DNA from: a virus
Lineage: Duplodnaviria > Caudoviricetes
Length of the DNA: 25,437 nucleotides
Reading direction: 5' to 3' (one strand)
Virus record (IMG/VR): IMGVR_UViG_3300021124_000031
Coordinates: 1 to 25,437 of that record
Within the stretch, counting starts at the first letter, position 1, and every line of letters starts with the position of its first letter. The notes under the pieces are model-generated. The model was not told where the DNA came from, ran no database searches, and worked only from the letters and a program-made list of their open reading frames with translations. The translations under genes were made by a program, and so were the position numbers. Positions 11,077-25,437 of the stretch are shown here, one piece after another.

Positions 11077-12288
11077 TTAAATTCCGTCAAAATAACCAAT
11101 GCTTTCTGGATAGATTGGTTCAACTTGACCTAATTTGCAGAAGTAAGTAGATTTATGCCAAATACTATCAAATTGCACTGGAGTTCTTTGTAACAGTGTC
11201 ATTGGATAACGAACTAAGTCTTGACGTTTAGTATAAACAACCATACGGTCAAAACCACCATTACCAAGAGCAGTAGACAGACCAGAAAAACCACCAGCAC
11301 CTTGTAACCATTTGCATGGTTCGATACTTAATTTTTTACCAGTACGTTTAGCAATTAAATTGTTTTCCAAGATGTAATCCAAAAGTGATTGGTTACCAGC
11401 TTGTGAAACTATTGTAAATGCTAAGTAAGCATATTGAACAGGTGGTATCAAAATGTTTTCAGGCACAACTGCCCAAGCTGTATTTGCCCAAACAGTAGAA
11501 AGAGCTGTACTAAAATCTAGCAAGATTTCTTGTGGTGATTTTTTAGCCCATTGTGTAAAGCCTGAGTAACCTAGACCAACTGAAGTTTGAATACCACCAG
11601 AAGTGGAAACTAATGGATTGTTAAGTAACCCGTAAGCGTTAATGCTACTGTCACCAACATAAACCATTTGGTCAATCGACATTTGATGTTGAAGTTTCAA
11701 ACCTTCAAATTTTTGCGTGTCAATAGGGCGACCTAAACGAGCAGCCGATTCCAATTCAAGAATTGTATAGTGAACTTCCATACCCCATGCGGTTAATGGG
11801 TATGTCACTTTTGCAATGTCTACTGATACAGATGGAACTTGACTTGCTCTTTTGTCAATCCATTGTAAGCCAGATGCAGCGTTGATTGCTGCTGAACCTA
11901 AACCACTATTTGAACTAAATGAACTTAGAGAAAATGATGATACATCATCACCTAAAGTTACATCTTCACGTAAGTCAATGTCTCGACTCCAAGACAAATC
12001 GACCAAAGGCATGTGCATTTTAAGGTCGAGTCTTTCCAACTCGCCAACTAAAAATGCGCCGGTACTGTCAACAGTACGATAGCCTACTGCATCTTGATTA
12101 ATAGCTCCGTCACGTGTTTTGTAACTTTGTACGCGATAGCTTTGATCAAAGACTTTACCAGGGTGGATGCCACCATTGTAAGAACTTAAATTAACTGCAT
12201 CTAAAATATTCATAGATGCAGCAGTTACACCATCCAACGTTCTTTGTTTGATTATTGAATTAAAATTGTGAAATTGACTTGGTTTCAT
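11077..12288 (-). CDS. Major capsid protein (DUF2184-like, HK97 fold)
   Basis: 403 aa; DSTGAFLVGELERLD...PL....WSRDI.LREDV, GRPID.QK, D.MVYVGD, GLLN, DRMV.Y, Y.DGI C-terminus. Confidence 0.93.
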   Translation of the reverse strand: MKPSQFHNFNSIIKQRTLDGVTAASMNILDAVNLSSYNGGIHPGKVFDQSYRVQSYKTRDGAINQDAVGYRTVDSTGAFLVGELERLDLKMHMPLVDLSWSRDIDLREDVTLGDDVSSFSLSSFSSNSGLGSAAINAASGLQWIDKRASQVPSVSVDIAKVTYPLTAWGMEVHYTILELESAARLGRPIDTQKFEGLKLQHQMSIDQMVYVGDSSINAYGLLNNPLVSTSGGIQTSVGLGYSGFTQWAKKSPQEILLDFSTALSTVWANTAWAVVPENILIPPVQYAYLAFTIVSQAGNQSLLDYILENNLIAKRTGKKLSIEPCKWLQGAGGFSGLSTALGNGGFDRMVVYTKRQDLVRYPMTLLQRTPVQFDSIWHKSTYFCKLGQVEPIYPESIGYFDGI

Positions 12289-14277: not shown

Positions 14278-15606
14278 TTAGTATTCAGTCCATTCGATTG
14301 CGCCATAACCAGTGCTGTTAGCAAAAGATCCACCACCAGTTATATATAGACATTGGTTAACACCACGCAATGTAACTTCTTTTGCAAAGTTTCTGCTTTG
14401 AGCACCAAAGTCCCAAGACAATGGTGGCACACCAAGAGCAGCAGCAACAGGAGCATTTAAGACACCTGAGCGAATATTGCCGACAGAAGTTCCAACAGTT
14501 GGTCCAGTTCCAGTATAAGTCGTTACCGTTGCGGTAGGCAAAGAACCATAAAAAGTTCCAGCGGTATTAACAATGCCAGATGTTATTGTTGCACCATTAT
14601 AAACAAAGTTAGATGTTAAAACAGTACCGCCAGAGCCAGTAACAGTCACACCATTGTAAGTAAACGTCTGACCAACTGCCGGAGAAGAACCAGCACCAAT
14701 AGCACTAAAATTTGTTGTTCCCAATGCTGTTATGATATAGTTCGTACCGTTTACTAACGAACCAATTGATGTTGCAGTGGCACCTAAACTTGTCCAAGTT
14801 GTTGTGCCAAGCGTCATTATGGTATAAGTATTACCAGTAATGAGTGGTGATGATGTTGATAAAGTAAACTGATTTGTATCATTTAAATCAGATGCAATGC
14901 CAACAACATTTGATGGTGTACCACCCGTATCAACAGTGCTTCTTAATACCATTCTTACATATTTTGAAGCCGATGCTGAACTGTTTGTAGCATTAAATTC
15001 AATATGTGAAATTGATACTGTTCTTGTAGCAGAACCGCAAATGCCAAAATAATCAGTTGTAGAAGTTAATGCCAAACCACCAAAATCAGCGTGATAGGTT
15101 TGTCGAGTACCCATAAATGTGGCATCGAAATAATCATCCAAGCCTTCACTGACACTAGCATTTACTGTTCCAGTAGATAATGACGTTACATTGACATAAA
15201 ATGCGCTTGCACCGGACACGTTCACGGAATACATACCAGGTGTGGTAATTGTATTCGCAAATTGACCTTGGTTAGTTGTTACTGGTGCTTGAACCCAATT
15301 GTAATTTGATAATTGGGTTGATTGAGTTGCCTGACCACTGTCAGATGTAACGTAAACAGTTGCGACTAGACCTTGAAAAACACCAGATACGTTAATTCTG
15401 GCATTTGCATCGTTTCCATAAACTTGATATGGACCAAAAACGCCAGTTGTTGACAAAGAAGCCGTTGCTGATGTATTTGATGGTATAAATGTTGGATTTG
15501 AGAATGGAACTATTACCGGATTACCGATAGCTAGTACAATCTGACAAAATAACGTCAGAACAGCTCCAAACAAAATATTAGTATGTCTTTTCATTGCTAA
15601 TCCCAT
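14278..15606 (-). CDS. Thr/Gly/Ser-rich beta protein with signal-peptide-like N-terminus (putative virion appendage)
   Basis: 442 aa; MKRHTNILFGAVLTLFCQIVLA leader; ends ...IEWTEY; similar to 16309..17121. Confidence 0.55.
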   Translation of the reverse strand: MGLAMKRHTNILFGAVLTLFCQIVLAIGNPVIVPFSNPTFIPSNTSATASLSTTGVFGPYQVYGNDANARINVSGVFQGLVATVYVTSDSGQATQSTQLSNYNWVQAPVTTNQGQFANTITTPGMYSVNVSGASAFYVNVTSLSTGTVNASVSEGLDDYFDATFMGTRQTYHADFGGLALTSTTDYFGICGSATRTVSISHIEFNATNSSASASKYVRMVLRSTVDTGGTPSNVVGIASDLNDTNQFTLSTSSPLITGNTYTIMTLGTTTWTSLGATATSIGSLVNGTNYIITALGTTNFSAIGAGSSPAVGQTFTYNGVTVTGSGGTVLTSNFVYNGATITSGIVNTAGTFYGSLPTATVTTYTGTGPTVGTSVGNIRSGVLNAPVAAALGVPPLSWDFGAQSRNFAKEVTLRGVNQCLYITGGGSFANSTGYGAIEWTEY

Positions 15607-15659
15607 GATTTTAATAAGCTTGGTTAATTATAAGCGCAATTTTTTAATTACGCTTATTT

Positions 15660-16124
15660 TTATTTGTTAATTTGCGAAACTGTGTTAGAAGCATTTACTA
15701 AATTTGCTATGGCAGCTGTGGCTGGTGCTGTATATGGTATTAGTTTGCTATTGTTGGTTAGCTTTAGACCTAATGAAGCTGCATTGGTTATTGTATTTGC
15801 AACGTCTTGTGTGATTCCAGAATTTGCCACAATAGATTGCTGCAAAGCAATTATTGCAGATGCTCCAGCATCATTTAATGGTATTAATTCACCATTACCG
15901 GACATTGCCAAGCCTAAATCAACTGTCTTTTCAATTGTTGGTTCAATTACAGTTAAAAGAATTGGGTTGATTTTTTGCAAATCTGTTTGAACAGTTGCAT
16001 TAAATTTTTCAATGTCTGCAATAATTGTTGGAGTTCCTTTTGCTGGAGTCAAAGTACATCCGACCATTGCTGACATTGAAACTGCTGAAAATAAAATAAA
16101 ACTGGTATAAAAAGTTTTTTTCAT
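15660..16124 (-). CDS. Predicted lipoprotein
   Basis: 154 aa; MKK + hydrophobic stretch + AMVG-C lipobox-like site; Ala-rich helical body. Confidence 0.6.
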   Translation of the reverse strand: MKKTFYTSFILFSAVSMSAMVGCTLTPAKGTPTIIADIEKFNATVQTDLQKINPILLTVIEPTIEKTVDLGLAMSGNGELIPLNDAGASAIIALQQSIVANSGITQDVANTITNAASLGLKLTNNSKLIPYTAPATAAIANLVNASNTVSQINK

Positions 16125-16307
16125 TTAAGAGCCTAAAGTTGGTTTGTTGTCGTCATGTACAATGCCCATTCCACCAGCAACAGCAGAGCCAATGCCAATG
16201 ACTGGAACTGGGTCTTTTCCGATAAAATAGCACACCAGCGCGGCTAATCCTGTTACTAACCAGATTATTCCACGAATGGTCGATGGTTGATTTACATTAA
16301 TGTTCAT
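16125..16307 (-). CDS. Small two-TM membrane protein, holin-like
   Basis: 60 aa; QPSTIRGIIWL (PST.RG motif common in small phage holin-like proteins) and two hydrophobic segments. Confidence 0.6.
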   Translation of the reverse strand: MNINVNQPSTIRGIIWLVTGLAALVCYFIGKDPVPVIGIGSAVAGGMGIVHDDNKPTLGS

Positions 16308-16308
16308 A

Positions 16309-17121
16309 TTATTCCTCTGTCCAAGATATTAACGCATAAAGTGAAACACCTGCTGGCGTTCCAGTCCAACTACCTGCCAAACCGATAGCAAGTGATTCAC
16401 CAGAATGTAAAACTATCATCTGGTCATTTCTAACTCCAAAATCTTCAATCCAAACTGGAGCTGGATAGCCAGCCGTTCCTGAGTTTGGAACTATATAATG
16501 GTCACCACGCAATAATAGTCTATTGTTTCCTAATGAAACTGGACTATTAGAGAAGCTGTAAACTAATGAATGTGCAGATTCATTCGCTATACAAGTTCCT
16601 GAACTTGGAGAAACTGCGCTGGCAATAAAGTTTAATCCAATCGTGTTAGAAGCAGCACCCATATTGGTGCAGCCAGTTGACGTTGATTTAATTTGATAAC
16701 TTTGACCTATTACAAAGCCTGAACTTGAATGTAAAATTGGGTTTGGATAAAAGTTATCATGTTGAACTGGAATTTGTTGTGTTGCATAACTTGTTGTAGC
16801 ATCAGCGCCAGTCTGTTTGTAAACATAAAAATCGACTGCTCCAGTTGCTGAGGCATCAGCAGTTATTTGAATTCTGTTTATTCTGACCAACTTATCCGTT
16901 GGTGCTGTTATTGTTAAGAAATCAGTTTGACCAGATGTAACTGATAAATCAGCAATTTGAACAGAATATGTTTTGTTTGCATAATTAGGGTCAATAGATA
17001 AGCCGATAGCATTAACCGCTAAAGCATTTTTTGGTATTGTGGCAACACAAATTGCCAATAAAAACATTAAAGCCATTCCAAATAGGGCAGCAAATATTTT
17101 TTCGTTCACTTTTCTTATCAT
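16309..17121 (-). CDS. Beta-rich protein with signal-peptide/TM N-terminus; paralog of 14278..15606
   Basis: 270 aa; hydrophobic N-terminus ending NALA; TY......L......TDF..I......V.I..I, DFG and a WTEE C-terminus shared with the 442-aa protein. Confidence 0.55.
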   Translation of the reverse strand: MIRKVNEKIFAALFGMALMFLLAICVATIPKNALAVNAIGLSIDPNYANKTYSVQIADLSVTSGQTDFLTITAPTDKLVRINRIQITADASATGAVDFYVYKQTGADATTSYATQQIPVQHDNFYPNPILHSSSGFVIGQSYQIKSTSTGCTNMGAASNTIGLNFIASAVSPSSGTCIANESAHSLVYSFSNSPVSLGNNRLLLRGDHYIVPNSGTAGYPAPVWIEDFGVRNDQMIVLHSGESLAIGLAGSWTGTPAGVSLYALISWTEE

Positions 17122-17246
17122 TTTTCCACCTTTGAAAATACTGATATATTATTTGAATGTTTAAAACCATTGTCTATGTAATTTAACGTATAAGATAATA
17201 CAATAAACAATGCAATTTCTAAAATTGTTTTGATAATTTCTTTCAT
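17118..17246 (-). CDS. 42-aa single-TM microprotein
   Basis: Hand translation MKEIIKTILEIALFIVLSYTLNYIDNGFKHSNNISVFSKVEK*; ATGA overlaps with both the upstream and downstream genes. Confidence 0.65.
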   Translation of the reverse strand: MKEIIKTILEIALFIVLSYTLNYIDNGFKHSNNISVFSKVEK

Positions 17247-18019
17247 TGTAAGTCGTCCAAAATAGGCTCTATGTAACAACGACAATTCCAAATGCACCCC
17301 GCGTGATAAGGTTCAACTTTTTCATCTACTTTTGGAGGGTCATTAAATGCTATTATTTTTCCATCCATTTTTTTGTGAGAATCTCTCACATTGCTATCTC
17401 TGGATGTTCTCCAATAATAATGAGTGCAGCCAATGCTTTCAGACCTAGCAATAGTCAATGCACTTGCAGTTCTGGCAATTTCAGTTCTGGCAATTAATAC
17501 CGCTCTTTTTTCGGTTATCCTTCCAGTTTCTAGTATTCTACCAGCAATTTCATCTGCTCTAGCTCCTTCAGTTATTGCTTCAAGAGTCAATTCATGCACT
17601 CTTTTTGCAGCTTCTAATGGTAAACTTGTTATTAATCTAACTTGTTCACTTAAAAATATTCTTGTTACATTGCCTGTTGGAGCTTCATTAAGTTCTTTTC
17701 TTAACTCTCTACCCATTAATCTTCCAAGTTGAATCCACTCTGTTTCATTAACTTTGTGAACTCTTTGGATTATTTTTTCAGCAGTTGCATTTGCCCATGG
17801 GTTTATTGCTTTGGCATAATCATTTAATAACCACTCTATTCTTTCTGATGAACTTTTTATTTCTTGTTCGCTCATTTCTACATTTATGAGCAGCTTTATT
17901 AGATGGTCAATGTGTCTTGTCAACGTCCTTAGTTGATGTGTATATTCCATTTCAAGAGAACTAGCAATTTCAAAACGTCTTTTAGCAGCTCTCTTTTGTC
18001 TATTATATTGAATAGCCAT
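17243..18019 (-). CDS. Head morphogenesis protein (SPP1 gp7 / MuF family, short form)
   Basis: 258 aa; RA.LIARTE, Y.WRTS.D..VRDSH..MDG, HAG.I.NCRC..EP; follows the portal. Confidence 0.92.
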   Translation of the reverse strand: MAIQYNRQKRAAKRRFEIASSLEMEYTHQLRTLTRHIDHLIKLLINVEMSEQEIKSSSERIEWLLNDYAKAINPWANATAEKIIQRVHKVNETEWIQLGRLMGRELRKELNEAPTGNVTRIFLSEQVRLITSLPLEAAKRVHELTLEAITEGARADEIAGRILETGRITEKRAVLIARTEIARTASALTIARSESIGCTHYYWRTSRDSNVRDSHKKMDGKIIAFNDPPKVDEKVEPYHAGCIWNCRCYIEPILDDLQ

Positions 18020-20091
18020 TAAAATTTAACACCATATATGTTTTCAGAAACATCTTTTAATATTTCCAAACAATCAGGTAGAATCTGTAATGTTTCAGTT
18101 CCAGAGCGTATATAATTCCATGCAAACCAATTGTATTCAATGTTTTCTTCATTTAATTGTATATCTGGAAATAAACTTGGTAAAAATTTTGGTGGTAATT
18201 CACAAATAAACCCGACAAATCCATTTATTGTGCATTGAACCTCTGAATTGTCCAATTCCATTTTTAATCCAGTTTCTTCTTCAAATTCTCTTTCAGCTGC
18301 TTGAATAGCTATTTCGCCTTTCTCTATTTTGCCACCAGGAAAAGCCCAAAGACCATTATCAGCTCTTTTGCAAAGAAGTAGCCAATCTTTACTTGTCAAC
18401 AAAATACCAGCAGCAACAGGCATAGCAGAATCTCCAACTTTATTTAATGGTTTTACTTTTTCAGATTTTAATTGGCTACTTTGGATTGATTTCCCTTCTC
18501 CAGCTCCATTTCTTTCTTTACCTGACAATTTTCTATTATCAATTGGCTCATTGCCAACAAAACCATTGCTATTGTAAGCTGGCAAACCTTGATAATTATC
18601 CATTCTTTCATTTGGGTATTCTCCGAGTTCAAGCATTGGTGGTGGCTGCAATCTTGCTTTTTCCAAATCTTCATCAGTAATATTGGTAAATATACCACTT
18701 TTCTTGCTACTTTGTTTCAATTCTTTCATAGCAGTATATGGAGTTATCAATCCTGATTCAACAGCTTTTGATACTGAATCGACAACTTTATTTGATAAAT
18801 CGGCTTTTTCAACGTCAGTAAGCTGCCATAAAGAACCAAAAGCTATATCAAAATCATCTGGTATTTCAATTCCTAAATTGTATAAAGTCAGTTTATATAT
18901 GTTTGAAACATCTGTTCTTAGTTCATTTTCACGTCTTAAATCAATACTGTCATAGTAGTTTCTAAGGTCAGTGTCACCTGTACTAAAGCCAGCTGGTGAT
19001 TGTCCAAATAATCTTACTAATGGAATTTGCTCAGAACCACTAACCTGTTCCATAAAACGTATCAAAATATCAGATAAGCCACCGAACGCGCCATGAGTAT
19101 CAGTGACTAATTCATCTTCCAAATCCATCAAGGTCATGCCTTCAGAATTTTGAAACCTTCTCATCATGTTAATTTGATTTATCAAACCTGCCATTGCAGT
19201 TGATGAACCAGTTTGGATTTCTCTGAATCCTTTAATTTTATAGTTTCTGAGATAAGACTTGTAGACTAATTGAGCTGCGCCAGTTGTTGCTGAGTCAAAG
19301 GCTGTTAATCTGTCATAAACTCTTTCCAATACAGATTCACCCCATAAATTTTCCATAACAGCTTGCCAATAAGGTAATTGCACACCAAGGAATCTTATCA
19401 CTCGCGTGTGATGGATTTTTTGACCTACCATTATTGGTGCCATTGAATTCAACCGATACCACTTTGGTTTGCCCAAATCTGGTCCAAGTTCAGTGACTAA
19501 ATTCATTACATCTGGCTCAACCATCCACCTGTCAAGAGCTATAACACCTTTGAATTCACCAGGATTAATAGGAACGTCAAAATTTAACGGGTCTGACATT
19601 TTTTGGTCTGCTATAAGAATGACTAATAGACCACCACCATATAGTCTACCCCACTTAATTGCATCTGATATTTGATGCCAAACCCTGTTTTTGGTTAACC
19701 ACTTAGTCGCTCTTGCCGCATCTTTAGGTTCAATTTCACCAAGAAATTCTGCGCCAGTTCGCGTCATGTCCTCGGCAATCGTGTCAATTAGCTTACCAGC
19801 CAACCAACTTCCACGATACATCCATTCAAGTACCGTTCTTTGTCGTGTTATTGGATTGAAACCGTATGTTGCCGTTGTTAGCGGATTGTCAGCTCCAATG
19901 CCCATGTTCTGTTCATAATTAACAAAACTGTCAGTCGTTCTAAAAGATTCACCACCTTCATCTTTTTCAGAACTTTCACCGTTATTTTTAGCGTCATTTT
20001 CACGCATTATCTTAAATAACAGTTCTTCATCAGATATTGCCTTACTGCGAGCATTTTTAAAACCAGATTTTTTCTTAGTCATAAATTCCAT
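18019..20091 (-). CDS. Portal protein (DUF1073-like) with C-terminal Nudix hydrolase domain
   Basis: 690 aa; YRGSWL....ID..AEDMTR, WGRLYGG, LDRW, IP.VRLFGQSPAGFSTGD.D.RNYYD, LWQL. From about residue 557 a Nudix domain with G-KIEKG-E-IAIQAAE-RE-F-E-EE-T-G-L. Confidence 0.92.
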   Translation of the reverse strand: MEFMTKKKSGFKNARSKAISDEELLFKIMRENDAKNNGESSEKDEGGESFRTTDSFVNYEQNMGIGADNPLTTATYGFNPITRQRTVLEWMYRGSWLAGKLIDTIAEDMTRTGAEFLGEIEPKDAARATKWLTKNRVWHQISDAIKWGRLYGGGLLVILIADQKMSDPLNFDVPINPGEFKGVIALDRWMVEPDVMNLVTELGPDLGKPKWYRLNSMAPIMVGQKIHHTRVIRFLGVQLPYWQAVMENLWGESVLERVYDRLTAFDSATTGAAQLVYKSYLRNYKIKGFREIQTGSSTAMAGLINQINMMRRFQNSEGMTLMDLEDELVTDTHGAFGGLSDILIRFMEQVSGSEQIPLVRLFGQSPAGFSTGDTDLRNYYDSIDLRRENELRTDVSNIYKLTLYNLGIEIPDDFDIAFGSLWQLTDVEKADLSNKVVDSVSKAVESGLITPYTAMKELKQSSKKSGIFTNITDEDLEKARLQPPPMLELGEYPNERMDNYQGLPAYNSNGFVGNEPIDNRKLSGKERNGAGEGKSIQSSQLKSEKVKPLNKVGDSAMPVAAGILLTSKDWLLLCKRADNGLWAFPGGKIEKGEIAIQAAEREFEEETGLKMELDNSEVQCTINGFVGFICELPPKFLPSLFPDIQLNEENIEYNWFAWNYIRSGTETLQILPDCLEILKDVSENIYGVKF

Positions 20092-20217
20092 CGTTAAATT
20101 GTGTTTAAGGCATTTTTTAGCTTTAGCGCTATATTGCTATTGCTAAAGCGTTAAAGTTGCTCTAGCACGTTTTAAATCGGTTTTTAAGGCATTTTAAAGT
20201 AAAACATTAGGTAAAAA

Positions 20218-21699
20218 TTAAGCGTAGACTTTTTCACCAAGTTTTTCCCAAATAGCCATCAAATTATTGCCGAGCATATCCTTAATTGCATCACAGGTTG
20301 GGTCTATTTGGTCATCATGTAAATGCGTGTCATCAGCAGTAAAAGCTTCAAACTCAGCAATGTAGTCGTTGGTAAATGGAGCGTCTGCTGGAACAAAAAC
20401 ATAACCTGATGATATTGATGGTGAAGCATCAGATACTCTTGTGTACTTGTCATTATGTCTTTCAATAGCTTCAACAGGTATCAAACCATCTTTTCTAATT
20501 TCTTGTATTAGACCAGTTCCAGATGCTTTATCTTCAACTTTCAATTTTCTCAAATCACCGTAAAAATAAGTTTCAAAATAAGGTGATTTATGTTTGTTCC
20601 AAAAACCAATAGCACGGAACTTTAGTTCGTGAGATTCCCACTTACCGCGAATCTGGTCAATAAGATAAATACGATTATATCCTTTTTCTTTCCCCCAACA
20701 TTGAATAACAGAATAGTCATTACTTTCTTTGGTCTTTTGTGCAGTATCGGCATAAAGCATCCTGTATTCTAACATCGGTAATGTTGAATATCTACCAAAC
20801 CAACAGCCTTGTATGATATTACCACCTGGTTGAATTGGTCTTTGTTGATATAAAGAAATCCAAGAGTGTAGTGGCAATAGACTTTTTCTTTCTTCAAGAA
20901 ATGATATTGATTTTAATTCTGGGAATAATGCTTCACCAACTTTTCTAAACTTATCATCTTTTTCAGCGATTGCCGGAAAGTTAAAAACTTTCATTTCACT
21001 TCCAAAAGCTTCCTGCGCTCTTGATAATGGGTCGTCAATGTGCCATCGTGTCATAACAAATAACATTCCTGCTTGGTCACTGAAACGAGTAAAAAAGTCA
21101 TCAGTAAACCAATCCCATATAGCGTTTCTGATGATTTCACTACCGGCAGCGTCACGCCCTTTGATTGGATCATCTATATAGCCAATATCAAGAGATTCAC
21201 CAGTAATCTGACCTTTAACAGTGGTGTTTCTAAAGCACCCATCTTTGTTTATAAACTCAACCAAATCTCTATTTCTTATCGCTCCAAACTTATCATTTGT
21301 TCCTGATGATGATATTTTTGTTTCTGGAAATATTTTTTTGTATTTATCGCTGTCAAATATTCTTTGGAGAGACAAGTTAGCCCTAATTCCAAGCCTTTCA
21401 CTAAATGAAGTGTACATTTGTTTAAAGTCAGGATGTTTACCAGCTACCCAAGAAATCAAATCGACAACAAGAGTTGACTTACCATGTTGTGGTGGAGCTT
21501 CTATTGCATATTTCGGTCTTTGCCCAGCAATTAGTTCTTCATAAAATTGTGTTGCTATTCTAGCAAGTTCTTCAGTAAACCACCCCTGTTCCATTTTTGG
21601 GCGTATATAGCAACGGTAAGCATAAAAGTCATTTCTAGCTTGTTTAATTGCTAATTGCTCTAATAACCAAAGGTCACGCTTTGTTAATGACTGTTCCAT
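20218..21699 (-). CDS. terL: Terminase large subunit
   Basis: Walker A PPQHGKS, Walker B IDDPIK, MTRWH.DD, nuclease DTA.K....NDYS, EDKASG, HDDQ.D. Likely start is ATG 21699 (AAGGA 8 nt upstream) rather than the track start at 21750. Confidence 0.95.
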   Translation of the reverse strand: MEQSLTKRDLWLLEQLAIKQARNDFYAYRCYIRPKMEQGWFTEELARIATQFYEELIAGQRPKYAIEAPPQHGKSTLVVDLISWVAGKHPDFKQMYTSFSERLGIRANLSLQRIFDSDKYKKIFPETKISSSGTNDKFGAIRNRDLVEFINKDGCFRNTTVKGQITGESLDIGYIDDPIKGRDAAGSEIIRNAIWDWFTDDFFTRFSDQAGMLFVMTRWHIDDPLSRAQEAFGSEMKVFNFPAIAEKDDKFRKVGEALFPELKSISFLEERKSLLPLHSWISLYQQRPIQPGGNIIQGCWFGRYSTLPMLEYRMLYADTAQKTKESNDYSVIQCWGKEKGYNRIYLIDQIRGKWESHELKFRAIGFWNKHKSPYFETYFYGDLRKLKVEDKASGTGLIQEIRKDGLIPVEAIERHNDKYTRVSDASPSISSGYVFVPADAPFTNDYIAEFEAFTADDTHLHDDQIDPTCDAIKDMLGNNLMAIWEKLGEKVYA

Positions 21700-22261
21700 C
21701 AATAGCGTCCTTTTCACTTTGTTTTTTAAACATTGTCGTTGGAAGTCCACGTTTTGATAATTCTTCCATCAACTTCTCTTGTGATAATTCAATATTTAAA
21801 TCTTCATCTTCAAAGTCACCTTCACTTCCTAATTCAACAGTTCTTAGATAACCTTCATTGTATTTTTTTATGACTACGTTACCTTGCCAACCATATTTTT
21901 GTTTCATGATTAAGGCATAGGTAGATTGAGAGCCCTTTCCAGTTGTAACCATTAATTGACCAGCATCTTCCCACCAACACTGTTCCAACATTTTTGCCAT
22001 CTCAAAGACTTCTTTGAAATGTTCATCTTCTCTGGAAAATTTTCTAAAAGTGTCACTATGTATTCCAAGTAAAACGCACCACCGTGATATTCCTTTTCCT
22101 TCTTGAGCTGAATCTAAGATTATAGTTTCCCAATCACTAGGTAACTCATCCATAGTGATTTTAAATCTGGTGGTTCTTTTTTTTGAGTCAACTAATTTTA
22201 ATGGTGGATTAAAAGTCCAGTCTACTTTTTCATCTTTTTTGTTTCTACCGTTTTCTGCCAT
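21674..22261 (-). CDS. terS: Terminase small subunit
   Basis: 195 aa overlapping the terL start; HTH-like G.GI...C..LGI...TF..F......F, then A....Q.WWE..G and MK...GW. Confidence 0.75.
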   Translation of the reverse strand: MAENGRNKKDEKVDWTFNPPLKLVDSKKRTTRFKITMDELPSDWETIILDSAQEGKGISRWCVLLGIHSDTFRKFSREDEHFKEVFEMAKMLEQCWWEDAGQLMVTTGKGSQSTYALIMKQKYGWQGNVVIKKYNEGYLRTVELGSEGDFEDEDLNIELSQEKLMEELSKRGLPTTMFKKQSEKDAIDGTVINKA

Positions 22262-23057
22262 TTCTTAATTTCTCAATAAATTTTTGCAAATCACCATTTT
22301 TCTTTTTATTTTTGTAGATTATTGTTTTCTTACCATTAATCATCCACCTTTTGTCACTTCCAGTGACACCTTCTTTGTAAAGTCTTTCAAATCCATTTTG
22401 TTCCAATGCGCTGTTTATTTTTGGAGATATTACTTTTATTTTACACCCAAGTTCTATTAACTCGCTAGTTATTTGCTGGGTTGATACAAATTCTTTCTTT
22501 TTGTGTTTTTGAAATACATAATTAAAAACTTTCCAGTCGTCATATCTTTTAAATTCATAGCCTGTCTTTCTTTTACCTTTCTTGTCAAATTTTGGTTCAA
22601 TTATATGCTCTGGAATAGCACTGCCATCCATGTAGATACTCACTAGATAATCTATTCCGTTTTTTCTAAATTTTGTTCTAGTGGTTTTCTTATACATATA
22701 ATAAAAACCATCTTTACCAGATTTAAATTTTATTGGTGTATTGTAGCGTTCATCTTTAATTCTCACATAATCATTTATTCTCATAAATGTTATAAAACGG
22801 ATAGGACAACCATCTTTGTTAACTGGTTTAAATTCCATCTCATTTTCATTTAGCAATTCTTTTTTAAATATTTTTTCAGTTATGTATTCTAAAGATTTAA
22901 GTTTTTCATTGCTGTTTAAAAAATTTGAAAATACAGATAATATTTCAATTATTTCTGGATTTTCATTTACTTTCTCAATAAATTTCGATTTTGCCATGAT
23001 TTTTGTGCTAAAAAACAGGTACTTTTGCGGATTGCTTTTGTACTCGTTTTTTAGCAT
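22245..23057 (-). CDS. Lys-rich hypothetical protein, possible DNA-binding (winged-helix-like C-terminus)
   Basis: 270 aa, overlaps the terS start; start uncertain (alternative ATG at 22997). C-terminal VST..I...L.......I..AL...GF.R......R pattern. Confidence 0.5.
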   Translation of the reverse strand: MLKNEYKSNPQKYLFFSTKIMAKSKFIEKVNENPEIIEILSVFSNFLNSNEKLKSLEYITEKIFKKELLNENEMEFKPVNKDGCPIRFITFMRINDYVRIKDERYNTPIKFKSGKDGFYYMYKKTTRTKFRKNGIDYLVSIYMDGSAIPEHIIEPKFDKKGKRKTGYEFKRYDDWKVFNYVFQKHKKKEFVSTQQITSELIELGCKIKVISPKINSALEQNGFERLYKEGVTGSDKRWMINGKKTIIYKNKKKNGDLQKFIEKLRNGRKR

Positions 23058-23122
23058 AAAGTTAATGCATTAAAACGCTAGTTTTTTGATAAATGTACCT
23101 GTTTTTTGTTGTTTTTTATGAG

Positions 23123-23276
23123 AAAAAAGCACCGAGTCCGTGTTGAACCGTGTTACTTATATAGTGCTTATATAGCTAATAAAATAATTACGTTTTACTA
23201 CTAAAATAATTTATTTTATTTAAAATCTTTAGTAGGGTATATGTAACACGGTTCAACACGGACTCGGTGCTTTTTT
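23123..23276. repeat. Perfect 34-bp inverted repeat flanking an 86-bp AT-rich spacer
   Basis: AAAAAAGCACCGAGTCCGTGTTGAACCGTGTTAC (23123-23156) and its exact reverse complement (23243-23276). Confidence 0.95.
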
Positions 23277-23293
23277 AGCCTAAAATTTGTGAG

Positions 23294-23394
23294 AAAAGAC
23301 ACTTTTTTTGCAAAAATATGTTAGAGTCGAAGCTAAAAAAGACACTTTTTAGGCTAAAATCCGTTAGAGTAAAGACAAAAAAGACCCTTTTTTT
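23294..23394. repeat. Three iteron-like direct repeats, 42-43 bp period
   Basis: AAAAGAC(A/C)CTTTTT with GAC at 23298, 23341 and 23383; GTTAGAGT at 23320 and 23363. Confidence 0.8.
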
Positions 23395-23545
23395 AACACA
23401 AAAACAGGTACACTACTTTTTTGAATTTTTTATGATATTTTTTTGAGAAAAATGGTTTGAATTTTTGCTTCATGGAATTTTAGACAGATAGAGCGTGTGA
23501 AAATGGATTTTTGACCTAGACCCCCTGCCCTGCCCTCTCCGAACG

Positions 23546-23753
23546 TAAGTCCTTGTTTTATAACGATTTTATTTCGGCACGGTATTTGCTAAGGCAAAAT
23601 CTATGCCGGAGTGCTCTCCCCTGCTCTCTTCCGAACTTAAGCTATTGTTTTATAACAACTTTTATAAGTCCTTGTTTTATAACGACTTTATTTTTAGGCA
23701 CGCTAATTGCTAAGGCAAAACACATGCCGATTTGTAAGCTATTGTTTTATAAC
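23546..23753 (-). promoter_or_regulatory. Four IHF-like sites, TAAG-N3-TTGTTTTATAAC
   Basis: Copies start at 23546, 23638, 23665 and 23735. The reverse complement reads AAACAA-N4-TTA versus the IHF consensus WATCAA-N4-TTR (one mismatch). Confidence 0.55.
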
Positions 23754-24037
23754 GGGTTTTGTTTTTCGAGTCAATTCCGTGCTATTCACCCCTAAAAAAA
23801 TAACCCTAAAAAAATAACGGCACACTAATTGCTAATAGCAATTCCTATGCCTAAAATTTTCGAGTCAAAAACAGACAGAGAAAATAAATTTGCAGTCTAT
23901 CGTATTTTGTGTTAGGTAAAAAGTCGGCACGGATTTTGCTAATAGCAAGGTTTATGCCTAAAAAAATAGGTGGATAGGACGGATATGTACTAGGGTAAAT
24001 AACGGCACGGCTTTTGCTATTAGCAAGGTTTATGCCG
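23575..24037. promoter_or_regulatory. Five dyad elements, each made of two facing sigma54-type -24/-12 boxes
   Basis: GGCAC-N5-TTGC-N4/5-GCAA-N5-ATGCC at 23575-23608, 23696-23729, 23818-23852, 23925-23959 and 24003-24037; GG-N10-GC spacing exact in all ten half-sites. Confidence 0.7.
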
Positions 24038-24234
24038 ACATTTGCCGTTTGTTGTACAGGCTTATGACCGGCAATGTTTGCGGTCGGATTTGACTCGATT
24101 GCCTATATGTTAAATGCTCTAAAACGCTCTACGCTTGCCGTTACGCGACAAAAATAAAAAAGCTATACATTAGCATTAGTCCGTTGCTAATCGTTGTATA
24201 TAGCGCTCTAATATCTTAGAAAATAAGGCTTTTA

Positions 24235-24312
24235 TAATTCGATTTAAGACACGAAAATTTTTAACCTGTACCTTAGTACACGTTTTTAAAAGTCTAGGCT
24301 TAAATCGAATTA
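24235..24312. repeat. Long hairpin with 14-bp perfect outer arms
   Basis: TAATTCGATTTAAG (24235-24248) / CTTAAATCGAATTA (24299-24312), with an inner TGTAC-ctta-GTACA. Confidence 0.8.
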
Positions 24313-24370
24313 CGAAAAATTTGCAATCGTTGTGCAATTATGTTAAGCACAAATTCGAGTCAATCGCAAA

Positions 24371-24441
24371 AAAATAAAAACACTTGTTAGCGAGTCAATC
24401 GCTAAAATTTAGACAAAAAAATACCCGCTAAAAAGCGGGTA
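24371..24441. repeat. Direct-repeat block, copy 1
   Basis: AAAATAAAAACACTTGTTAGCGAGTCAATCGC...AAAATTTAGACAAAAAAATACCCGCTAAAAAGCGGGTA; repeated at 24980-25084. Confidence 0.9.
24415..24441 (-). terminator. Rho-independent terminator
   Basis: Minus strand TACCCGC-TTTTTA-GCGGGTA followed by T7; about 20 nt after the stop of 24464..24853. Confidence 0.85.
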
Positions 24442-24463
24442 CTAAGTCCGTGTGCTGTTATTG

Positions 24464-24853
24464 CTAGATGCTACCACATTGGTAGCAAGCTCCAAAAGAA
24501 TGTCCTTGTGGTACAACGATGTCTCCACCGCAAAAACCACATGCACCGACATGAATTGTGTCGGTTTCTAAAATTTCACCAGCGCGGCAAGATTCAGCCG
24601 ATTGTACAACAACAGCATGGTCGTTGTCGTTGTCGTTGTCGTCATTGCCAGAACTAGCATCACCACTAACTGCAGCTATTTTGTGCAGTTCATTAACAAT
24701 GGTCTCCCAGCCTTCCATGCAGCCACCAACATTAGCTAATGTTGGTGGCAGACCGTTCACTCTGTGCAAGTGAACTTCCGTTCCTTTTCTGGTCAAGAAA
24801 AGGTCTGCTGTGCACTCAAAAGTGCCGAATTGTGTTTCAACATTGTATTTCAT
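24464..24853 (-). CDS. Small hypothetical protein with C-terminal zinc ribbon
   Basis: Likely start is ATG 24853 (AAGGTG 6 nt upstream); acidic NDDNDNDND linker; CGFC...CYQC; has its own promoter candidate and terminator. Confidence 0.7.
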   Translation of the reverse strand: MKYNVETQFGTFECTADLFLTRKGTEVHLHRVNGLPPTLANVGGCMEGWETIVNELHKIAAVSGDASSGNDDNDNDNDHAVVVQSAESCRAGEILETDTIHVGACGFCGGDIVVPQGHSFGACYQCGSI

Positions 24854-24941
24854 TGTAAGCACCTTGCCGGATAATCCGGCGATTAAATTTAAAAAAACTT
24901 AGATAGACATCTATCTAAGTGATAAAACAAATTACGGCTTA

Positions 24942-24969
24942 ATAATAACAAATAAAAATAAAAAAACAA
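24942..24969 (-). promoter_or_regulatory. Putative sigma70 promoter for the zinc-ribbon gene
   Basis: TTGTTT-16 nt-TATTAT with an extended -10 TGn and AT-rich upstream sequence. Confidence 0.5.
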
Positions 24970-24979
24970 GTACATTTTT

Positions 24980-25084
24980 AAAATAAAAACACTTGTTAGC
25001 GAGTCAATCGCAAATTCGAGTCAATCGCAAATTCGAGTCAATCGCAAAAATTTAGACAAAAAAATACCCGCTAAAAAGCGGGTA
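24980..25084. repeat. Direct-repeat block, copy 2, with a 17-bp unit expanded to three copies
   Basis: Same block as 24371-24441 but CGAGTCAATCGCAAA(TT) occurs at 25000, 25017 and 25034. Confidence 0.9.
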
Positions 25085-25086
25085 TT
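25058..25086 (-). terminator. Rho-independent terminator (copy of the 24415 terminator)
   Basis: TACCCGC-TTTTTA-GCGGGTA plus T7 on the minus strand. Confidence 0.8.
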
Positions 25087-25097
25087 AATTACGAGTC

Positions 25098-25124
25098 AAA
25101 AAGAGCTATTTAAAAAATAGCTCT
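25098..25124 (-). terminator. Putative terminator directly after the last ORF
   Basis: AGAGCTATTT/AAATAGCTCT 10-bp stem with 3-nt loop and a short T-run, 8 nt after the stop. Confidence 0.55.
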
Positions 25125-25132
25125 GTCTTTTA

Positions 25133-25437
25133 TTAAGGTATCGCTGTAAGAACGATTTTTAGTCCTGTCTTAGTCTTACCTTCGACAGGACCTATAGACA
25201 GTGCAGCTTTTTTACGCAAAGCTGCACCGCTTACGCAGCCCGTACCTAAAGTCTTTTCGACTTTAGGTAACTGTGTGTTTTCAAAAAATTGTTCTGTGCC
25301 ATCCGCGTTAAATACGCGGATGTTGAAAAAACGAGCCTGTTTGCCTACAGGCTTAACAGGCTTAACAGGCTTAACAGGCTGTTTAGCGGTTTTGTCAGCG
25401 GTTTTGTCAGCGGTTTTGTCAGCGGTTTTGTCAGCGG
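25133..25437 (-). CDS. 5'-truncated basic hypothetical protein with TADK and PVK repeats
   Basis: Not in the track (start lies outside the window); 100 open codons: ...ADKTADKTADKTADKTAKQPVKPVKPVKPVGKQARFFNIRVFNADG...KIVLTAIP, then TAA TAA and terminators. Confidence 0.7.
   Translation of the reverse strand, partial: ADKTADKTADKTADKTAKQPVKPVKPVKPVGKQARFFNIRVFNADGTEQFFENTQLPKVEKTLGTGCVSGAALRKKAALSIGPVEGKTKTGLKIVLTAIP
25347..25437. repeat. In-frame tandem repeats (9 bp and 12 bp)
   Basis: ACAGGCTTA x3.8 (25347-25380) and AGCGGTTTTGTC x4.4 (25385 to window end). Confidence 0.95.

Follow-up and report, generated by a model that had tools for sequence, protein, structure and literature searches.

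The 25.4-kb stretch of DNA analysed here (25,437 nt; hereafter the window) is the whole record of one virus (Duplodnaviria; Caudoviricetes; IMG/VR IMGVR_UViG_3300021124_000031), for which CheckV estimates a completeness of 45%. Upstream of its terminase genes lie five copies of a palindromic module of 32–33 bp, GGCAY-N5-TTGC-N3-6-GCAA-N5-RTGCC, each built from two −24/−12 boxes of the sigma-54 (RpoN) type that face each other on opposite strands. We are nearly certain that this is a selected protein-binding module, and its half-sites make the host sigma-54 holoenzyme the probable binder. That the module is a docking site for host sigma-54 polymerase working as a two-way promoter is the reading we favour, tentatively, and it is unproven. 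Sigma-54 is the one bacterial sigma factor that locks RNA polymerase in a closed state until an ATPase opens it, and it is seen as an instrument of tight host regulation rather than as a phage tool.

Results

Five modules in non-coding DNA

All five modules fall within 23058–24463, 1.4 kb without a credible gene. The only open reading frames (ORFs) there, one of 80 aa on the + strand (23553–23795) and one of 53 aa on the − strand (24176–24337), match no Pfam or PHROG family, and the region was non-coding in every test run, in agreement with the initial annotation, which saw no credible ORF next to the array. Module 1 (23576–23607) reads GGCAC-GGTAT-TTGC-TAAG-GCAA-AATCT-ATGCC, with its two sigma-54-type boxes on opposite strands. 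Module 2 (23697–23728) has the same spacer, TAAG, and is 81% identical to module 1 over 42 nt, modules 3 (23819–23851) and 4 (23926–23958) have the spacer TAATA, and module 5 (24004–24036) has TATTA; the central spacer measures 4 bp in modules 1–2 and 5 bp in modules 3–5. The module starts are 121, 122, 107 and 78 bp apart. The pattern returned these same five exact matches, the ones first described, and none in 100 dinucleotide-preserving shuffles (0/100).

Polarity is identical in the five copies: the + strand half always has GGCAC, the − strand half GGCAT. Half-sites of the form GGCAY-N5-TTGC number 10 in the window, against 0.5 expected; all ten sit inside the five pairs, with no solitary ones, and the GG-N10-GC spacing is exact in every half (10/10). 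When one mismatch was allowed, the window gave 19 matches against 10.9 expected, a count reached by 3/100 shuffles and nothing beyond chance. Aligning the five copies with 20-bp flanks placed 20 of the 22 invariant columns in the boxes, while the N5 blocks and flanks vary. Modules 1–2 belong to a shared 121-bp unit composed of a C-rich box, an TTGTTTTATAAC repeat and the module, and modules 3–5 share 47–51 nt; the copies arose through duplication of larger units. Contigs of four freshwater runs that cover 23247–24036 contain a single variant, T>A at 24020 in the spacer of module 5 (one contig, one run), and the next 350 bp of the same contigs contain 13 variable places. The low variation across 23247–24036 is weak evidence of constraint.

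Half-site identity in viral and bacterial DNA

In its longer form, the sigma-54 consensus has R after GGCAC and W after TTGC. The window halves carry R after GGCAY in 10/10 cases, W after TTGC in 8/10 and T before GG in 0/10. A scan of viral contigs with the same pattern, in which the T, R and W positions are left free, found at least 126 stretches, and ~720 are estimated for the collection. Among the matches listed there are 143 unique sites (286 halves). Their free positions copy the sigma-54 consensus, which bears out the assignment of the halves to the sigma-54 type: the base before GG is T in 90% of halves, the one after GGCAY is R in 279/286 and the one after TTGC is W in 231/286. Both the T and the A flank are present at 115/143 sites and neither at 2, and the central spacer is 75% A+T.

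The spacing within the half-site is fixed in these relatives too. In the fetched viral loci (411 kb), TGGCAY-N5-TTGC accounts for 209 boxes outside the index modules, whereas other spacings of x = 2, 3, 4, 6, 7, 8 and 9 yield 3, 1, 2, 3, 1, 2 and 7; the exact GG-N10-GC spacing noted for the window thus extends to the family. At the level of sequence, this comparison shows that the viral half-sites match the sigma-54 consensus, whose published form is TGGCAC-N5-7-TTGCT (PMC12316311), and that they keep a fixed spacing. The distance between the two halves is similarly restricted, with gaps between the −12 boxes of 3 bp at 21 sites, 4 bp at 69, 5 bp at 32, 6 bp at 23 and 7 bp at 13, none at 0–2 bp and one at 8 bp; a gap of 7 lies outside the search pattern (N3-6).

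In a 596-Gb set of bacterial and archaeal genomes, the same pattern is estimated to occur in ~610 stretches, with ~140 expected by chance at equal base frequencies. Among 117 unique bacterial sites, both flanks occur in 22/117, R in 121/234 halves and W in 97/234, and the A+T fraction of the spacer is 0.48; these matches look like chance. About half of the 22 both-flank sites are one Leptospira repeat that lacks R. The copies of this repeat (L249–L251, L270–L275, L229, L231 and L233) lie ~0.9–1.8 kb apart and carry T instead of R behind GGCAT; the repeat is therefore probably of an unrelated family and no sigma-54 module. Since the bacterial sites look like chance and the viral flanks follow the consensus, the face-to-face module is in essence peculiar to viruses.

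Eighty viral loci related to the window through its large terminase contain no palindromic module; all are at most 60% identical, except L127, a 100%-identical record that ends before the array. The best cultured terminase match, Ralstonia phage PY059YO380 (59%), has no GGCAY-N5-TTGC box, and neither the window region 23000–24470 nor the L032 control region finds a DNA match among cultured phage records.

Arm complementarity and predicted starts

The modules are inverted repeats by construction, and we compared their arms as potential RNA stems. Watson–Crick matches between the N5 blocks of modules 1–5 number 2, 1, 3, 1 and 0 of 5. Complementarity at Y+N5 is 1.88 of 6 within modules and 2.29 ± 0.10 in shuffled arm pairs, with 1000/1000 shuffles at or above the observed value. 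The outcome is the same when G-U pairs are allowed, on either strand (at least 999/1000 shuffles at or above observed). Only 7/143 viral sites have N5 blocks with 4–5 of 5 complementary positions, and no T run follows the modules. Because the arms are less complementary than shuffled pairs, hairpins are avoided rather than selected; this absence of N5 covariation, along with the fixed spacing, favours protein binding to double-stranded DNA over a hairpin, as the non-complementary N5 blocks of the window had first suggested. Neither of the two sequence patterns that the initial annotation had named as refuting, a varying GG-N10-GC spacing and base-pair covariation in N5, was thus seen. Neighbouring modules in arrays are spaced 41–122 bp apart, with no helical phasing.

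The geometry also predicts where transcription would begin. With +1 placed twelve bases after the −12 C, the + strand start would be at module position 26 and the − strand start at spacer+3. The two predicted starts would be divergent and non-overlapping, 23 minus spacer apart, which amounts to 16–20 bp across the family and 18–19 bp in the window; for module 1, they would lie at ~23601 on the + strand and ~23582 on the − strand. Although the boxes are set face to face, transcription would run outwards from each module. This changes the view, taken in the initial annotation, that facing boxes are unlikely to be ordinary promoters, for diverging starts at such a distance are a known layout of symmetric, bidirectional sigma-70 promoters (PMC12825309). 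In a promoter of that class, the starts are expected 10–23 bp apart, to either side of a symmetric core that both share.

Placement in carrier genomes

Clustering of 1869 flank ORFs gave the large terminase as the largest family, with 30 loci including the window, and the module lies upstream of this gene in 30/30 loci, by 730–2612 bp. The whole carrier records with a phrog_38 terminase number 13; the module precedes that gene by ~1–7 kb in 8 of them, and in the other 5, which are larger phages without exception, it lies at a great distance. The next ORF upstream with a length of 90 aa or more is divergent to the terminase gene in 19/27 loci, the window being among the 8 co-directional ones. 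In three loci (L005, L029 and L044), the upstream divergent gene encodes a 445–456-aa amidoligase-like protein (PF12224, E ~1e-6 to 1e-7).

On contigs of at least 10 kb, the module is less than 1 kb from an end in 23/90 cases against 6.9 expected, an enrichment near termini of the kind the initial annotation had proposed looking for. The contig ends themselves keep no constant distance from the modules and do not fall at the G-rich box described below. In the complete linear genome G004, three modules lie 0.5–0.7 kb from the right end; near its left end, an unannotated 481-aa ORF (1390–2835) was taken as the large terminase gene; phrog_38 has no match in G004. In G002, a module is 315 bp from an end.

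The boxes are concentrated within genomes. In near-complete genomes of 36–62 kb, every TGGCAY-N5-TTGC box is at one spot in 6/6, and in those of 79–91 kb in 2/4. Among complete genomes below 100 kb, all boxes form one locus in 8/10 (G002, G004, G012, G016, G020, G025, G027 and G031): G004 has 8/8 boxes within 424 bp, G002 and G012 have 3/3 at one locus, and G016, G020 and G027 have a single module each in genomes of 38–57 kb. Larger phages (G023, G026, G028 and G033) have more boxes, partly dispersed, and in G026, G033, G034, G037 and G008, all of them large, they are scattered and remote from the terminase gene. With all boxes at one spot, the module in the size class of the window is a unique cis-acting landmark rather than a regulon.

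A different arrangement was seen in four larger uncultured phages (L047, L065, L038 and L001), which carry many solitary boxes in the gaps between small genes, often as tandem pairs 26–38 bp apart. L047 has nine boxes in 6 kb, where 0.02 would be expected.

Proteins encoded by the carriers

No protein family besides the large terminase is common to all loci, and this favours a universal host factor as the binder. The sigma-54 activator AAA+ domain (PF00158) was found in 0/39 carrier records, 13 of them at least 90% complete, and not in the window, while the control was positive in 14/14. A sigma-54 DNA-binding domain scored above cut-off in 0/40 records. The T7-type RNA polymerase domain PF00940 was likewise found in 0/39 records, a search in which the control genomes were also silent and which is therefore unvalidated. 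Genes resembling small terminase subunits differ between loci: that of the window belongs to phrog_3064, a family present at 17 loci matches nothing in PHROG or Pfam except an AT hook, and other loci have neither.

Motifs around the array

Two further elements accompany the modules. On the terminase side of module 1 is a G-rich box (23520–23541, 8/12 G) that reads GGAGAGGGCAGGGCAGGGGGT on the − strand, a weaker counterpart of the CGGGGGAGGGGG-type box that follows modules in related loci. A box of at least 9/12 G, often CGGGGGAGGGGG, is present on the terminase side of modules in 18/30 loci, and control placements gave 1, 1 and 5 of 30. A second, degenerate G-rich box (23612–23637, − strand) lies between modules 2 and 1, where it is part of the 121-bp duplicated unit of box, D2 repeat and module. 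The D2 repeat, TAAGYYNTTGTTTTATAAC, occurs in four copies (23546–23574, 23638–23666, 23665–23693 and 23735–23763; − strand) and reads TATAAAACAA-N4-TTA on the − strand. The motif TATAAA-N-CAA-N4-TTA, which the D2 repeats of the window contain four times, resembles the consensus of integration host factor (IHF). It recurs in six other loci, 216–316 bp from the module and on the terminase strand, with 0.009 expected.

A sigma-70-like promoter, TTGACT-17-TATAAA (23746–23774, − strand), lies between modules 3 and 2 and points towards the terminase genes; it was read by eye and is absent from the promoter scan list. Overlapping sigma-70 promoters were dropped as a general feature of the modules, only module 3 having one listed (TTGCTA-17-TAAAAT). 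The repeat CGAGTCAATCGC, which presents a −35-box-like TTGACT on the − strand, is found at 23766–23779, 23859–23872 and 24085–24098 and within 24342–24453 and 24980–25096. In these last two intervals, which are 92–97% identical, it forms with a terminator hairpin a duplicated promoter–terminator cassette before each small − strand gene.

Immediately ahead of the 270-aa gene that follows the array is an inverted repeat (23114–23161 and 23238–23285) with 48-nt arms, 92% complementary, around a 76-nt A+T-rich loop. Contigs from three runs diverge from the window at 23178 with the same alternative letters, which suggests that this loop is variable or present in two forms. In 22900–25437 no Rfam family reaches its gathering score, every match falling far short of it, and the best match, on this large inverted repeat (33 bits against a gathering score of 70), was rejected as spurious.

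Gene order and source of the window

Metagenome runs from freshwater or freshwater sediment, 24 in number and all recorded as DNA, contain the stretch, whose G+C content ranges over 28–40%. L343 repeats 15291–25437 at 99.9% identity. All credible genes are on the − strand. They comprise tail and baseplate genes, the major capsid gene (11077–12288), a DUF2213 protease-like gene, a MuF-like gene and a portal gene fused to a C-terminal NUDIX hydrolase domain (18019–20091; PF06381, E 4e-89; PF00293, E 1e-13) in one 690-aa frame. The gene for the large terminase subunit follows (20218–21750; phrog_38, E 1.4e-87), with its start 1.8–2.3 kb downstream of the modules, then the gene resembling a small terminase subunit (21674–22261; phrog_3064, E 1e-7). 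The 270-aa gene (22245–23057), which belongs to no family, is the first gene downstream of the array and starts 519 bp from module 1. Look-alikes of the 270-aa protein and of a 132-aa neighbour protein in the ESM Atlas all score below 0.9, and no tRNA gene was found in the window.

Two small ORFs on the − strand lie to the right of 24463, and a terminator-like hairpin follows each of them; an intrinsic-terminator-like hairpin with a T run (24420–24443, − strand) ends the small upstream gene before the array. No + strand gene lies right of the array, either in the window or in the 760 bp beyond it, which are covered by L344. Those ~0–760 bp (L344 reverse complement) are a repeat-rich non-coding stretch with five tandem 28-bp units, whose core GTTGTTTTATAA is shared with the D2 repeats of the window, then ten CAAT repeats and lastly seven or more 15-bp units that reach the end of the contig. 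This stretch may be an origin or terminal region. The last ORF of the window (25133–25435) contains in-frame 9- and 12-nt tandem repeats that encode KPV and ADKT runs; the 12-mer has ~4 copies in the window and at least 12 in L343, and assemblies break there.

Discussion

In the reading we favour, two sigma-54-type −24/−12 boxes interleaved on opposite strands would dock host sigma-54 RNA polymerase, which could face one way or the other but not both at once. Transcripts from the halves would diverge without overlap, from starts 18–19 bp apart in the window, making each module a compact two-way enhancer-dependent promoter. Leftward firing would serve the 270-aa gene and the terminase operon, and rightward firing would produce a non-coding or antisense RNA. 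Firing would need a host-supplied activator or an unrecognised phage factor; before activation, the docked polymerase would remain closed and block passage. A 15-bp bipartite half-site that is identical to the sigma consensus, is kept in contigs from AT-rich to GC-rich and goes with unrelated phage proteins makes the host sigma-54 holoenzyme the most economical binder, and the strict face-to-face geometry round an A+T-rich centre, with a frequently divergent gene context, fits a two-way promoter.

Several observations weigh against this reading. The carriers lack a recognisable activator, and no recurring enhancer-like palindrome was seen beside the modules. The base before GG is C or A in 10/10 window halves, as the initial annotation had remarked, where T is found in nine-tenths of the family, and the viral collection holds only 5 stretches with such non-T flanks in the spacer-4 TTGCT form. 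Given the missing T and the rarity of these flanks, the window is therefore best regarded as a variant member of the module family, with a sigma-54 affinity that may be lower here. The modules lie 520–980 bp from the first − strand ORF and five in tandem, which is odd for promoters, and in several loci a near-perfect sigma-70 promoter stands ahead of the terminase genes (in L040 it is 12/12, with an extended −10 that includes TG). In L047, 7 of the 8 boxes on the + strand are solitary, and all are directed against the conserved genes of the − strand; solitary boxes in general show no preference for ORF starts in the firing direction (44 vs 47 of 135, with naive ORF calls). Finally, one locus per genome beside the terminase genes, often near contig ends, suits a cis-acting packaging or replication site equally well.

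Enhancer-dependent sigma-54 promoters of bacteria share with the modules the sequence TGGCAY-R-N4-TTGC-W, the fixed GG-N10-GC spacing and an A+T-rich stretch after −12. The phage boxes differ in being interleaved face to face over 3–7 bp, an arrangement at chance level in 596 Gb of bacterial genomes, in occurring without an activator gene or recognisable enhancer found in the carriers, and in forming one locus per small phage genome rather than a regulon, with C or A for T before GG in the window. A second point of comparison is the symmetric sigma-70 promoter described by Warman, Grainger and colleagues (PMC12825309), where polymerase takes one of two exclusive orientations and 18 bp is the commonest distance between starts. 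The pseudo-symmetric core, the two exclusive orientations and the predicted distance of 16–20 bp are alike. Those promoters, however, share a −10 hexamer and fire spontaneously, whereas the module has two full −24/−12 sets for a sigma factor that needs an ATPase to open DNA; the text of PMC12825309 mentions sigma-54 0 times. The modules also resemble the non-promoter or repressive sigma-54 sites of E. coli and Salmonella, as presented in PMC4551910 and PMC3844500, in being boxes at places where one would expect no conventional promoter, with repressive occupancy possible and the −12 C conserved. Those sites are single, scattered, often intragenic and chromosomal, and the phage modules are palindromic at a fixed landmark.

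The same half-sites could serve a polymerase that never fires. Host sigma-54 holoenzyme, or free sigma-54, would bind and the stable closed complex would itself be the product, acting in either orientation as a roadblock or insulator that separates the terminase operon from the small genes upstream, as a packaging or replication landmark, or, in multi-copy arrays, as a sigma-54 sink. Taken as a whole, we consider this rather unlikely. It would account for the lack of an activator in the 39 carrier records and the window, and the modules retain the −12 C, the base that holds a closed complex shut; every repressive sigma-54 site has a C at −12, and repression through occupancy by the holoenzyme has a precedent (both PMC4551910). 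In the window, the array is suitably placed between the terminator at 24420–24443 and the late operon, with the sigma-70-like promoter at 23746–23774 upstream of modules 2 and 1, and the single locus near terminase genes and contig ends would suit a landmark. Roadblocks, though, are needless where flanking genes diverge, as they do in 19/27 loci, and insulation is more cheaply obtained from intrinsic terminators, one of which is already there. A sink needs many sites, and the phages with one module in 38–57 kb (G016, G020 and G027) or one small cluster (G002, G004 and G012) fit poorly with the sigma-54 or polymerase decoy first proposed; the one-locus distribution makes a pure sink unlikely. 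Neither roadblock nor sink explains the strict 3–7 bp face-to-face geometry. A loading platform, a further role suggested in the initial annotation, is conceivable too.

Packaging sites offer another analogy. The R sites of lambda cosB, with their IHF site, and the pac repeats of SPP1 and P1 are each specific to the phage's own small terminase subunit. Like them, the modules form arrays just upstream of terminase genes at the only such locus of the genome, and an IHF-like motif and a G-rich box accompany them. The binder could be a protein encoded by the phage, or another one of the host, that shares the specificity of sigma-54: a small terminase subunit acting at an accessory site of cos or pac, an initiator of replication at an origin, or a repressor. 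As a whole we hold this to be unlikely. In its favour are the position upstream of terminase genes (30/30 loci, the placement typical of cos and pac sites, and ~1–7 kb upstream in 8/13 whole records), the single locus in 8/10 complete genomes below 100 kb, the enrichment near contig ends, with modules 0.3–0.7 kb from an end in G004 and G002, the likeness of the companion motifs to cosB, the absence in the window of the T usual in sigma-54 sites, and the palindromy, which is natural for a dimer. Against it, a repeat read by a small terminase subunit is expected to vary with that subunit and to have ends at a fixed place, but here one host-sigma consensus is shared by phages whose small-terminase-like genes are unrelated, and contig ends lie at no constant place beside the modules. 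A 15-bp half-site matching sigma-54 across AT-rich to GC-rich contigs would be hard for fast-evolving phage proteins to maintain, the carriers encode no sigma-54 DNA-binding domain (0/40 records), array spacings of 41–122 bp lack helical phasing, and large phages have their boxes scattered at a distance from the terminase gene (G026, G033, G034, G037 and G008). A hairpin element, formed by the inverted repeats as RNA or single-stranded DNA (a terminator, processing site or single-strand origin), is largely refuted and very improbable. Three of the five + strand window copies do fold clearly better than shuffles when G-U pairs are allowed (z −5.2, −1.3, −4.0, −4.0 and −2.6 for modules 1–5), but the arms are less complementary within sites than between them, compensatory changes and T runs are lacking, and no Rfam family was recognised. 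Restriction-site, CRISPR-like and transposon-end readings were also rejected, being at odds with both the sigma-54-like consensus and the one-locus distribution.

Our literature search returned no description of palindromic or face-to-face sigma-54 boxes in phages. The present analysis contributes the rule of face-to-face geometry, the difference between viral and bacterial DNA, the finding that complementary arms are avoided, the placement at one locus upstream of the terminase genes, and the companion G-rich and IHF-like motifs. A bolder proposal, doubtful though conceivable, is that phages evolved a palindromic sigma-54 docking module of their own that captures polymerase without a classical activator and, in the smaller genomes, occurs once, next to the control region of the terminase genes. 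The captured enzyme would make the module a two-way promoter that needs no activator, or would stay parked for good as a landmark for packaging, replication or insulation; in both cases viruses would be using the sigma-54 closed complex in a way not known before.

If host sigma-54 polymerase does dock at these modules, phages would either fire it by an unfamiliar route or exploit its silent, stably bound state. The module would offer synthetic biology a compact two-way enhancer-dependent promoter, and it would provide a simple sequence marker for the boundary of control and packaging in the genomes of uncultured phages.

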